Source: a virus (taxonomy: Duplodnaviria; Heunggongvirae; Uroviricota; Caudoviricetes). From it: a stretch of DNA of 6,829 nucleotides. Position numbers and translations under genes: made by a program. Shown here piece after piece: positions 3,916 through 6,829 of this stretch. The notes below the pieces were generated by a model. That model was not told where the DNA came from. It saw only the letters and a program-made list of their open reading frames with translations, and ran no database searches. Each line of letters begins with the position of its first letter. The first letter of the stretch is position 1. Location of the stretch: the IMG/VR virus record IMGVR_UViG_2778261463_000018; one strand, 5' to 3'.

Positions 3916-4203
3916 ATGAAACTTAAATATTCTGGCTTAACTGCCAGTGGCAAAACTCGCACTAAATTCATGCGCGGCGATATTTACCGCGATAAGTACG
4001 GCGGCACGGTCATGATTAAGGGCGTGGAGGAACGTCGCATCACTTACCGCCGTGATGGCTACGAATATGACTGCGTGATGCCTGTTTATCAGTTCCGGCG
4101 TGATTTCACGCTGGTGGGCCATCGTAAAGCCGTTAATCAGAAACGTGCAGCAATCTATATCCGCAAAATCCGTGAAATGCTGGTCGCAGGGGGTAAAAAA
4201 TGA
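3916..4203 (+). CDS. Hypothetical basic protein, 95 aa (R/K-rich, possibly nucleic-acid binding)
   Basis: ATG 3916; stop TGA 4201-4203 overlaps the ATPase start (ATGA coupling); high Arg/Lys/Tyr content. Confidence 0.55.
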   Translation: MKLKYSGLTASGKTRTKFMRGDIYRDKYGGTVMIKGVEERRITYRRDGYEYDCVMPVYQFRRDFTLVGHRKAVNQKRAAIYIRKIREMLVAGGKK

Positions 4204-5606
4204 AACTGGCACCGAACGTAAAACTGTTACCGAAAAATAAACACACTGAGGCGGTTATTTTTGCGGGTGATAATGCTCACTCCTTTGCAGAACATTACAT
4301 GATTGCACAGGCCAAAAAAGCAGGCGATCCCATCCCTCCGGTTTACCTGGGCCGTTATCAGTTAAGCGAACTGGACAACTTACAGATTGTTGATGAAGGA
4401 CGATACAGGGCAAAGGTCATACGCGCCGGAAACCTGGACGATATGCAGATGCTGACCATTGCCACAAAACTGGCGATCGCCGGAGTCCTGGAGGCGCGGC
4501 TACTTTCTGAAAATTTCGAACTGCTGGAGGACTGGAGCGACCAGCTACCACGACTACGGGAAACATGGGAGAGAGGGGAAAGCCTGGTCATGAATGGCGG
4601 AAAGCGAAAAATCACACTTCCCATCTCATGGGGTTCTGAGGGATTCGATGCGCAGCAAAGCTACGTCATTAAGGGGCTTATTCCGGCTGAGTCATTATGC
4701 AGCACCTACGGGGCCAGCGGTTCTTATAAATCGTTCCTCGCCATTTCCTGGTCGTGCCATGTTGCCACAGGTATGGCATGGGGAGGCCGCAGGGTAAGTA
4801 AGGGTGCGGTTATCTATATCGCTGGCGAAGGCAGCATGGGCGTAAAACGCCGCGTTAAGGCGTGGGAGATAACCCACGAAAAAATGGTTACAGATTTGTG
4901 CATCATTAACGCGCCGGTATTCCCCGCATCGCCTGACTATGTGGAGCAGGTTATCAGGACTGCCGGACTTGTTAAGAGCAGAACGGGCGAAAATGTGCGG
5001 CTGATTGTGATCGACACGCTGGCCCGTTGCTTTGGTGGGAATGATGAAAATGATTCCCGTGATATGGGCGCATTTATCCAGGGGTGTGACGCGATAAAGC
5101 AGGCTACAGGGGCCACGGTGCTGGTGGTTCACCATTCCGGCAAGGATGAAACAAAGGGGGCGCGTGGTTCCAGCGCATTCCGTGCCGCGCTTGATGCAGA
5201 GTACCGAATCAGCCGGGAAAATTCAGACGTTACAGCACTGGTGGCGGCGTGTACGAAGATGAAAGACGCAGAGGAGCCAAAAGAGAGCGCATACGACCTT
5301 AAAAGCGTGGAGGTGTTTACCGATACCGATGGCGAAGAGATTGTGTCCATGGTGGTGATTGACGTTCCCCGCGCCCCTGCTGAACTGGAGCGCATAGAGG
5401 AGGCAGGCAACAAGACGGAAAACCATACCGCGCTATGGGGGTGCATCCGTTCACGCACACAGAACGGCGACAAGTGCACGATCCCGCTGTTACGTGATGA
5501 CATGAAACGGCTTGGGTATGACGTGAAAAATATGCGGCGATGGTTAGCCAAACTGGAAAAAGACGCCGTGATTTACATTGATGGTGATGATGTAGGACCA
5601 CTGTAA
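4200..5606 (+). CDS. P-loop NTPase of the RecA-like/AAA_25 (RepA/DnaB-type replicative helicase) family, 468 aa; putative island replication protein
   Basis: P-loop-like YGASGSYKS (4707-4733), Walker B-like RLIVIDTLARCF, and VLVVHHSGKD...GARGSSAF motifs characteristic of RepA/DnaB-like helicases; SD AGGGGG; immediately followed by an iteron array. Confidence 0.75.
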   Translation: MKLAPNVKLLPKNKHTEAVIFAGDNAHSFAEHYMIAQAKKAGDPIPPVYLGRYQLSELDNLQIVDEGRYRAKVIRAGNLDDMQMLTIATKLAIAGVLEARLLSENFELLEDWSDQLPRLRETWERGESLVMNGGKRKITLPISWGSEGFDAQQSYVIKGLIPAESLCSTYGASGSYKSFLAISWSCHVATGMAWGGRRVSKGAVIYIAGEGSMGVKRRVKAWEITHEKMVTDLCIINAPVFPASPDYVEQVIRTAGLVKSRTGENVRLIVIDTLARCFGGNDENDSRDMGAFIQGCDAIKQATGATVLVVHHSGKDETKGARGSSAFRAALDAEYRISRENSDVTALVAACTKMKDAEEPKESAYDLKSVEVFTDTDGEEIVSMVVIDVPRAPAELERIEEAGNKTENHTALWGCIRSRTQNGDKCTIPLLRDDMKRLGYDVKNMRRWLAKLEKDAVIYIDGDDVGPL

Positions 5607-5806
5607 AAAGTGAGTAGCAAAAGTGAGTAATGGTGATGTTTTTACAAAATATTAACACAATTACTCACTTTCTCACCTGTATACATGCTCAAAAGTGAGG
5701 AGTGAAAAAACACTTATGAAACATGCACATACAAAACACAAAAATCTCAAGTGAGACGAAGCGAGACGCTTTAAAAAGTGAGTAGTAAAAGTGAGAGATG
5801 GTGAGC
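5607..5806. repeat. Iteron-like array with core AAGTGAG(T/A) (at least 7 direct and 2 inverted copies) around an AT-rich spacer; putative replication origin
   Basis: AAAGTGAGTA at 5607, 5620, 5775; AAAGTGAGA 5788; AAAGTGAGG 5691; AAGTGAGA 5750; GGTGAGC 5800; inverted copies TACTCACTT 5662-5670 and TCTCACC 5672-5678; AT-rich 5638-5665; palindrome TGTATACA 5678-5685. Confidence 0.5.
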
Positions 5807-5807
5807 A

Positions 5808-6176
5808 ATGAATAAAAATCGAACAGCAGGACAAAATACCGAAGGTAAATTTATGAACACTGAAATTGAAACACTGAGCATATCAACTGCCCTTCCTGGC
5901 TGGTGGGCTAAGTTCAAAGACGACGACGGCACGGAATGGTATAGCCCAATTGCTGCATGGGCGCTTTGTGAGATCCACCATTTCGGTACCAGGGATACTT
6001 ACCGCGAAATCTTACCCGTGCTGGCCAGTGAGCTGGGCGTGAGTCCGCATAGTCCTGATGAGGGAATGTTCGAGTGCCTTTATCTGCCAGATAAGAAGTT
6101 TGTTCACTGCGGTGAGTCATGGGTATTTGCCTGGTATCCGGTTAACGACAGCAGCAATAGCGGTACTCTGGAGTAA
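5808..6176 (+). CDS. Hypothetical protein, 122 aa (or 107 aa from ATG 5853, which has the better SD)
   Basis: ORF in frame 3; ATG 5808 has a short 3-nt SD spacing, ATG 5853 has GAAGG at 7-nt spacing; Trp-rich, no recognisable motif; stop TAA 6174-6176. Confidence 0.5.
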   Translation: MNKNRTAGQNTEGKFMNTEIETLSISTALPGWWAKFKDDDGTEWYSPIAAWALCEIHHFGTRDTYREILPVLASELGVSPHSPDEGMFECLYLPDKKFVHCGESWVFAWYPVNDSSNSGTLE

Positions 6177-6179
6177 ATC

Positions 6180-6422
6180 ATGAAGGTAAACCACAAAAAG
6201 ACAGATCACCGCGCCATTGACCTTACAGAGCACTGGCTGAGGGTGGCGATAAAAATCATCGACCGCAACGCGGGAGAAGGATACGCGAAAGCACATCCCG
6301 AACTGATAAGCGCATTCATGACAACGACGGCGGCAAACTTTGCCACGCTGACAGAGCGGGATATTGCCCAAGCGGAACAGGTGACAACCATCAACGTTAA
6401 AACCAGTGAGGTGGAATCATGA
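6180..6422 (+). CDS. Hypothetical protein, 80 aa
   Basis: ATG 6180 preceded by GGAG 6169-6172; stop TGA 6420-6422 overlaps the ssb start (ATGA coupling). Confidence 0.5.
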   Translation: MKVNHKKTDHRAIDLTEHWLRVAIKIIDRNAGEGYAKAHPELISAFMTTTAANFATLTERDIAQAEQVTTINVKTSEVES

Positions 6423-6829
6423 CAGCACAGATAGCGGCTTACGGGCGGCTGGTGGCTGACCCGCAGTTAAAGACCACCAGCAAGGGGACACAAATGGCGA
6501 TGGCGAGTATGGCGGTTCCCCTGCCATGCAGCCAGGCAGATGACGGAACGGCGACGATGTGGTTATCCGTCCTGGCGTTTGGCAGACAGGCCGACGCACT
6601 GGCCAGACACCACAAAGGCGAACTGGTGAGCGTGGCGGGTAACATGCAGGTGAGCCAGTGGACCGGACAGAACGGGGAAACGCGGCAGGGCTGGCAGGTT
6701 ATCGCAGACAGCGTAATCAGTGCGCGGACAGTGCGACCTGGCGGAAAAACACGCAAAACCACAGGCACACAGGGGAATAAGCCACCAGCGGGAGGCGATG
6801 ACCCTTACGGTGATGATATTCCGTTCTGA
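6419..6829 (+). CDS. ssb: Single-stranded DNA-binding protein (SSB-like), 136 aa, complete; stop at last base of window
   Basis: N-terminal YGRLVADPQLKTTSKGT...WLSVLAFGRQADALARHHKGELVSVAGNMQVSQWTGQNGETRQ fits the SSB OB-fold pattern (GrL..DPE.R...G...W..V..FG+.AE....+KG..V...G.L....W.D..G..R); Gly/Pro-rich linker; C-terminal acidic tip DDPYGDDIPF matches the canonical SSB tail (E. coli ...DDDIPF). Confidence 0.8.
   Translation: MTAQIAAYGRLVADPQLKTTSKGTQMAMASMAVPLPCSQADDGTATMWLSVLAFGRQADALARHHKGELVSVAGNMQVSQWTGQNGETRQGWQVIADSVISARTVRPGGKTRKTTGTQGNKPPAGGDDPYGDDIPF

Follow-up and report, generated by a model that had tools for sequence, protein, structure and literature searches.

Gene content of the island and layout of the repeat array

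The DNA analyzed here is a stretch of 6,829 nt (hereafter the window), the genes of which are all annotated on the + strand except one small ORF, and it stops inside the island to which they belong. The recognizable genes are as follows:

1-1230, + strand: tyrosine integrase of the island (Pfam Phage_integrase and Arm-DNA-bind_3)
1605-1793, + strand: alpA-like regulator, a hallmark of Gram-negative PICIs (Pfam Phage_AlpA, 5e-18)
3916-4203, + strand: DUF4222 gene, overlapping the start of rep (ATGA)
4200-5606, + strand: rep, encoding a 468-aa RepA-family (RecA-fold, SF4-like) helicase-initiator (AAA_25 and 1G8Y matches, RefSeq name, AF2 model)
6419-6829, + strand: island SSB, complete as an ORF, with its end on the final base of the window (phrog_44 at 2.4e-39; RefSeq annotation in relatives)

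Two small ORFs lie between the repeats and ssb, the length of which matches that of the 411-nt ssb in relatives, and several further small ORFs are located elsewhere. Based on the set int, alpA, DUF4222, rep and ssb, the window can be identified as the left portion of an EcCICFT073-family PICI from E. coli. The DUF4222 gene was found directly upstream of rep in every annotated relative examined in which the region is present, with either initiator type, and its product is predicted to be a likely replication accessory factor. An ORF at 1846-2871 encodes 341 aa, of which only the last ~48 residues match an Icd-like host cell-division inhibitor (NCBIfam, 8.2e-17; phrog 'transcriptional repressor'), a protein of about 65 aa in other islands. 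Its N-terminal extension gave no match in Pfam, PADLOC or NCBIfam, and PADLOC returned nothing for the accessory ORFs; the ORF may have been called too long, or it may represent a fusion or an accessory gene.

A 99.3%-identical copy of 5500-5900 was identified in E. coli ECCNB12-2 (L001), where the island is inserted between roxA (ycfD) and phoQ. The roxA-phoQ interval measures roughly 10-11 kb, a value for the interval and not from att to att, and the downstream part of this island contains perC followed by a prohead-protease/capsid fusion gene. CFT073 has the same gene order, and its island EcCICFT073, the prototype PICI of E. coli, uses ycfD-phoQ as att site (Table S1, PMC6092414). Rightward unidirectional genes, an integrase, an alpA gene and a dedicated att site, which together with a size of about 8-12 kb make up the island context of a PICI, were thereby all found. 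Among 5,426 complete E. coli genomes, 1,914 contain matches to parts of the window, at up to 12 places each, and an E. coli genome often holds several related islands with different rep-ori cassettes.

The repeat array was delimited as the 201-nt gap between the rep stop and the next + strand ORF, and was studied as 5607-5806; RefSeq shows a 200-bp gap without annotation. Its first iteron starts 1 base past the TAA stop (5604-5606) of the helicase gene. Exact AAGTGAG occurs seven times in the window, always within 5608-5795, with six copies on the + strand and one on the - strand. The shorter AGTGAG occurs 14 times in the window versus 1.9 ± 1.3 expected, and a count of at least 14 was reached in 0 of 200 shuffles. 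When one mismatch was allowed, 11 AGTGAG cores were counted in 5607-5806 (nine direct and two inverted), whereas 125 other windows of 200 nt hold 1.55 on average and never more than 5. The initial annotation, which had proposed at least seven direct and two inverted copies, was thus correct. A degenerate twelfth core, GGTGAT at 5632, has the counterpart GGTGAG in three related E. coli loci (L004-L006) and GTGGG in a fourth (L003). The extended consensus of the iteron is aaAGTGAGta, with a core of 6-9 bp, an irregular spacing of 7-17 nt and copies in both orientations. The elements of the array are arranged in the following order:

5608-5637, + strand: left iteron block, with direct copies at 5609 and 5622 and the degenerate copy at 5632 (spacing 13 and 10 nt)
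5636-5661, no strand: AT-rich spacer 1 (16% GC over 5637-5661), the least stable duplex of the region, with convergent iterons on either side
5662-5677, - strand: two inverted iterons, CTCACT (5664-5669) and CTCACC (5672-5677)
5678-5685, no strand: (TA)-rich dyad centre TGTATACA, abutting the inner inverted iteron 5672-5677
5693-5706, + strand: central direct iterons, AGTGAG at 5694 and AGTGAA at 5701
5703-5748, no strand: spacer 2 (28% GC), the most variable sequence, in which A-tracts are kept
5749-5806, + strand: right iteron block, with five direct copies at 5750, 5760 (AGCGAG), 5777, 5790 and 5800 (GGTGAG), the end of which coincides with the start of the next ORF

The two near-identical blocks reported previously are real, since 5601-5636 and 5769-5804 (36 nt each) share 89% identity. 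The blocks were also described as flanking one AT-rich segment; low-GC DNA does lie between the blocks, but it forms two spacers (5637-5661 and 5703-5748) instead of one, and the flanking genes have 53% GC. The palindrome TGTATACA is indeed present between the inverted copies and the central direct copy. The start of the next ORF is ambiguous, being either ATG 5808 or ATG 5853, the latter of which is the RefSeq start in relatives. Homology between islands breaks exactly past the last iteron, and the differing downstream genes begin 0-3 nt further on (window 5807-5860; ~1798-1810 in L005/L006). The last iterons (GAGAG/GGTGAG) may at the same time form the ribosome-binding region of the gene that follows.

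Other identities for this stretch were examined. A CRISPR array, with regular 24-40 nt repeats and unique spacers, is ruled out by repeats of 6-9 nt that are unevenly spaced and lie on both strands, in agreement with the initial annotation. A coding ORF was likewise rejected, as no + strand ORF of at least 40 aa exists within 5607-5807; in two metagenome contigs, gene calls span the array and look like caller artefacts. An Rfam scan of the whole window at E ≤ 1 detected nothing in the array and a chance isrD match at 2061-2096.

Thermodynamic analysis showed that the least stable 20-mer of 5400-6000 is 5636-5655, with a nearest-neighbour dG of -19.2 kcal/mol versus a mean of -26.9 (sd 2.7), and spacer 1 is a candidate DNA-unwinding element. 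Some relatives (EcCIRM12579, Pantoea) lack an AT-rich spacer 1; the site of unwinding is therefore uncertain, and first melting could equally well occur at the conserved TA-rich centre. The dyad centre TGTATACA is unchanged in five E. coli alleles and independent of the iteron sequence. TGTATA/TATACA was found at most 130 nt past the rep stop in 52 of 91 loci and in 0 of 91 coding controls, and the remaining loci, judged by eye, mostly carry ATATATA-like tracts at the same position. Owing to the inverted iterons, the region has an unusually strong fold when single-stranded (z -3.8).

This layout is kept in about 90 loci from Enterobacterales and Oceanospirillales. The plan is shared by E. coli, Xenorhabdus, Pantoea, Trabulsiella, Kosakonia, Rosenbergiella, Klebsiella and an Oceanospirillaceae MAG, while the iteron sequence varies. 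From the rep stop, it consists of two to three direct iterons, a spacer, one to two inverted iterons, a (TA)-rich dyad centre (TGTATACA, TGTATATA or ATATATA) and one direct iteron, followed by a variable spacer of 45-60 nt with A-tracts, four to five direct iterons and the next gene.

The helicase Rep and its C-terminal winged helix

Bioinformatic analysis divided Rep into an N-terminal region (aa 1-126), an AAA_25 core (aa 146-317) with the Walker A motif GASGSYKS, and a C-terminal winged helix (aa ~400-468). The protein matched Pfam AAA_25 at 1.6e-42 and, over aa 155-320, the sequence of RSF1010 RepA (PDB 1G8Y) at 1.9e-5, and its homologues are named 'helicase RepA family protein' in RefSeq. 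The full-length AF2 model had a pTM of 0.42, with low confidence in the helicase core. A Foldseek search with this model gave no match at E ≤ 0.001, and the weak matches were RecA-like (Rad51, RadA, KaiC and T7 gp4). For fold comparison, the full-length model was replaced by a domain model, in which the C-terminal domain adopts a winged-helix fold. The parts of rep that matter most for the array are as follows:

5397-5603, + strand: winged-helix codons, aa 400-468 (helices 407-421 and 428-437, recognition helix 445-454 and a beta-hairpin wing)
5529-5531, + strand: Asn444 codon AAT, for the residue directly before the recognition helix (helix 3)
5402-5806, + strand: putative specificity cassette, comprising winged-helix codons and the whole repeat region, delimited by the identity profile

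Pfam searches with the isolated aa 1-126 and with the isolated C-terminal domain gave nothing significant. Rep has no recognizable primase domain, unlike the Pri-Rep of EcCICFT073. Its aa 1-126 (window 4200-4577) share 45% identity with the N-terminus of this Pri-Rep (L002 5242-5634), the two proteins being otherwise unrelated. This segment was modeled by AF2 as alternating strands and helices with pLDDT 82-95, and it looks like an adaptor domain common to PICI initiators.

Covariation between Rep residue 444 and the iteron core

Comparison of closely related alleles linked the winged helix to the array. Rep of strain AR_0085 (L003) is near-identical to that of the window at residues 1-405 and carries about 19 changes in the last 63 residues. 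All of its aligned iterons, direct and inverted, read AGTGGG where the window has AGTGAG, and both inverted copies become CCCAC in concert. Conversely, the helicase cores of L004-L006 are only 65-77% identical to that of the window, whereas their C-termini show one substitution at most, and they carry AGTGAG iterons. The nucleotide identity profiles follow the same boundaries. In the comparison with L003, identity is mostly 93-100% in the flanks, with a single 100-nt bin at 84%, and only 53-76% over 5402-5801; against L004-L006, identity is 42-90% upstream and 96-100% over 5402-5701, and in L005/L006 all similarity to the window stops at about 5806. From these profiles, the last ~67 codons of rep and the array therefore form one exchange unit, and the alignments indicate that winged-helix codons and repeats are co-inherited and exchanged as a single cassette, 5402-5806.

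To cover a wider range of relatives, a survey included 80 loci, with one genome per species, together with E. coli alleles, EcCIRM12579 and a Klebsiella element. A locus was scored when the recognition-helix motif RW[LVI]xK[LFM] was recognizable and at least four copies of one core were present, which left 79 loci. The residue at position 444 predicted the core in 79 of 79 loci with no discordant case, although these loci are kin by descent and therefore correspond to far fewer independent events, perhaps four to six switches. The residues and cores were distributed as follows:

Asn (N) at position 444: GTGAG, 30 of 30 loci
His (H) at position 444: GTGGG, 14 of 14 loci
Lys (K) at position 444: GTGGG, 25 of 25 loci
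Ser (S) at position 444: GCGGC, 9 of 9 loci
Gly (G) at position 444: GCGGC, 1 of 1 locus

The same core, for which a search in related islands had been suggested earlier, is also present as AGTGAG in EcCIRM12579 and L004-L006. In a prospective check, seven further E. coli Rep alleles were picked by residue 444 before their DNA was retrieved, and all seven carried the predicted core. The closest pair of alleles, P0082 (N) and P0095 (H), differ solely at position 444 across 74 aligned C-terminal residues; P0082 has eight GTGAG and no GTGGG iterons, while P0095 has eight GTGGG and one GTGAG.

From the fold and the covariation, we infer that residue 444 directly contacts base pair 5 of the core, and Asn444 is proposed as the determinant of iteron base 5, the A in AGTGAG. 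The covariation proves a partnership between Rep and the iterons and not replication, because an operator read by the same protein would covary alike. Five loci (L044 from Gilliamella, L027, L084, L070 and L076) contain fewer than four copies of any of the three cores after rep. Among them, the Gilliamella locus has N at the 444 position with AATGAG-like cores, and the array was apparently lost from L027 and L084. Such low-copy relatives are possibly decayed origins or represent further specificities.

The array as a putative replication origin

In Gram-negative PICIs, the ori lies immediately 3' of the initiator gene and has an AT-rich region with a set of iterons on either side (Fillol-Salom et al. 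2018, ISME J, PMC6092414). In the case of EcCICFT073, deletion of rep abolished plasmid maintenance and deletion of the ori reduced it (PMC6092414). The array in the window begins 1 base past the rep stop, and its two outer sets of iterons (5608-5637 and 5749-5806) enclose the spacers of 16% and 28% GC. Island context, literature, covariation and architecture all support the earlier proposal of an iteron origin next to an initiator/helicase gene in the style of PICIs and SaPIs, and by analogy with these systems 5607-5806 is very probably the replication origin of a Gram-negative PICI. The Rep-iteron partnership, the winged-helix fold and the conserved architecture are established here; binding, melting, self-loading and priming by Rep would be expected by analogy with EcCICFT073 and the SaPIs.

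A mechanism can be suggested along these lines. Rep would act as a hexameric RepA/DnaB-like helicase that reads ~12 short iterons through its C-terminal winged helix, in the order of three direct copies, the AT-rich spacer, two inverted copies, TGTATACA, two direct copies, the A-rich spacer and five direct copies. Rep hexamers or their precursors would dock on the blocks, with the convergent and divergent copies positioning molecules at either side of the AT/TA-rich segments. Opening of the duplex may follow there, allowing the RecA-fold helicase to self-load on the single strands, and the island SSB, host primase and host polymerase would complete the replisome, so that the excised island is amplified after induction by a helper phage. 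In this scheme, residue 444, which caps the recognition helix at its N-terminus, would set part of the specificity (Asn-A and His/Lys-G at core position 5), and the winged-helix domain and the iterons would move together as the exchangeable cassette 5402-5806.

Alternatively, the repeats might serve only as operator or promoter elements for Rep or a regulator, controlling the downstream orf, ssb, perC and the capsid genes, or as a roadblock to read-through, with no origin at all. Several observations would fit such a role. The array ends exactly at the next ORF, its last copies overlap the possible ribosome-binding region, the downstream gene set switches straight after the last iteron, and the covariation of iterons and protein is expected equally for an operator. 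Against this, a consensus scan of 5400-6000 revealed no sigma-70-like promoter or terminator, the presumed binding partner is a helicase, and convergent and divergent iterons around AT/TA-rich segments reproduce the layout of the tested EcCICFT073 ori and of SaPI oris. An exclusive regulatory function is accordingly regarded as improbable, whereas a dual role as origin and operator would be compatible with these observations.

Direct repeats beside an AT-rich stretch also resemble plasmid oriVs in general, which would suit a classical iteron-plasmid origin that depends on the host initiator, uses DnaA and IHF, and has long iterons of 17-22 bp to which a Rep_3-type protein binds. Sites resembling DnaA boxes show no enrichment, however, with no notable site at ≤1 mismatch in the array, and an IHF consensus search of the region found none. 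The idea that DnaA might footprint on the repeats is unsupported because DnaA boxes are not enriched. Moreover, the cores measure 6-9 bp and follow one another at uneven distances of 7-17 nt, the window contains no Rep_3-type gene, and the adjacent protein combines AAA_25 with a winged helix, making this kind of origin very improbable. Lastly, satellites carry cos or pac and some pac sites contain short repeats, yet a packaging (pac/cos) or recombination site, or chance low-complexity intergenic DNA, is barely credible here, given that the repeat enrichment is far above chance, that the repeats change in concert with the helicase winged-helix domain, and that packaging functions lie at the opposite island end in published relatives, namely a terminase small subunit in EcCIRM12579 and carriage of the helper's cos sequence (PMC6092414).

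The replication origin proposed here can be compared with known systems, of which EcCICFT073 is closest in context. The two share the island family and the order int, alpA, ..., DUF4222, rep, ori, ssb, perC and capsid genes, as well as the ycfD-phoQ att site (in the window's relatives) and an ori 3' of rep with bidirectional iterons and AT-rich DNA. The initiator of EcCICFT073 is a 584-aa 'DNA primase family protein', in contrast to the 468-aa RepA/AAA_25 helicase of the window, and similarity is confined to the first 126 aa at 45% identity. Inspection of the gap sequence of EcCICFT073 showed the iteron GGTAGA(C/T)A in both orientations at the same place, where the window has AGTGAG. Of the two, the EcCICFT073 module is the one with a functional test, the origin in the window being putative.

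The nearest catalogued system by initiator is EcCIRM12579 from E. coli O55:H7 RM12579 (Table S1, PMC6092414), the RepA-type Rep of which is 63% identical overall to that of the window with N at the 444 position. After its rep come AGTGAG iterons and CCTGTATACAT; TGTATACA and the order of blocks are shared with the window. Its spacer 1 is GC-richer, its downstream genes are different, and a terminase small subunit is encoded on the island. Literature searches found nothing specific on the EcCIRM12579 ori, on RepA-type PICI initiators or on their winged-helix specificity.

Through a C-terminal winged helix, SaPI Rep binds penta- or hexanucleotide iterons, 6-12 in number, that lie directly past the rep gene, and the SaPI origin has an AT-rich centre with oppositely oriented iterons on each side, on which the helicase self-loads (PMC9371898). 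The Rep/ori modules of S. aureus SaPIs (Rep1 and PriRep5) thus resemble the window in the C-terminal winged helix, the short iterons downstream and the AT-rich centre, and the modeled fold together with the covariation points to iteron specificity of the winged helix in the window as well. The motor of SaPI Rep is an AAA+ (SF3/MCM-like) 3'-5' helicase, whereas that of the window Rep is RecA-fold and RepA/DnaB-like, and no AAA+ or SF3-MCM-like motor was found in it. Because the Rep motor is RecA-fold (AAA_25) and not AAA+, the resemblance is one of architecture and not of a homologous motor.

As for RSF1010/IncQ, the helicase core of RepA (PDB 1G8Y) is homologous to that of the window Rep. In the window, helicase and winged helix form a single fused protein, and the iterons measure 6-9 bp. 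In RSF1010, RepA has no origin-binding domain, a separate RepC reads 20-bp iterons and RepB' primes. An IncQ replicon, which combines the RepA helicase with RepC, the RepB' primase and ssiA/ssiB, was rejected, as only the helicase core is homologous and no RepC- or RepB-like family was recognized among the window ORFs. A classical Rep_3/pi/TrfA iteron origin, with regularly spaced 17-22 bp iterons, DnaA boxes and a Rep_3-like WH-WH initiator, was also rejected, as the window shows cores of 6-9 bp spaced by 7-17 nt, no DnaA-box enrichment and no such gene. Another replication protein of an E. coli satellite, P4 alpha, unites a primase with an SF3 helicase and recognizes short repeated octamers by means of a C-terminal winged helix. 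The ori and crr of P4 are separate and do not adjoin the 3' end of the gene.

By position, organization and context, the origin appears to be a member of the published Gram-negative PICI rep-ori kind, with EcCIRM12579 as a catalogued homologue. The finding mainly confirms the annotation, because the PICI literature already predicts an origin there, and the cassette, the dyad centre and the residue-444 rule refine a known system incrementally. In the text of the papers searched, no statement was found of a 400-bp winged-helix-plus-ori cassette, a conserved TA-rich dyad centre or an N / H,K / S,G rule. The new detail, as indicated by the alignments, is that residue 444 of an island helicase tracks one repeat base.

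Taken together, these data lead us to lean, with some reserve, towards a joint reading in which RepA-type PICI initiators would be self-loading SF4-like helicases with an origin-reading winged helix gained independently of the AAA+ SaPI Reps. Specificity would be set largely by residue 444 (Asn-A, His/Lys-G, Ser/Gly-GCGGC), and a single N-to-H change with a concerted A-to-G change in all ~12 iterons would create an orthogonal replicon, the 400-bp cassette being shuffled among islands against cross-talk. Orthogonal Rep/iteron pairs would have selective value because related islands often coexist. Cassette swapping could explain how many related satellites coexist per E. coli genome without initiator competition, and engineering would gain a set of orthogonal helicase/origin pairs. 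What the comparison contributes is a simple rule of protein-DNA recognition and a natural cassette in which domain and site are swapped together, and the design of helicase, winged helix and short iterons would have arisen on two unrelated helicase motors.

Among the relatives, K. pneumoniae pKp_Goe_795-4 (L098, CP018459.1) is deposited as a circular 16,971-bp 'plasmid' record and typed as non-mobilizable. It encodes an integrase, a small DNA-binding protein, a Rep homologue, a capsid protein, a head-tail adaptor and a terminase, and no second replication-type protein was recognized among its generically annotated CDSs. On this circumstantial evidence, it looks like an excised, self-replicating and capsid-forming PICI-type satellite and not a plasmid. 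The record shows the same origin plan as the window, with GCGGC iterons.
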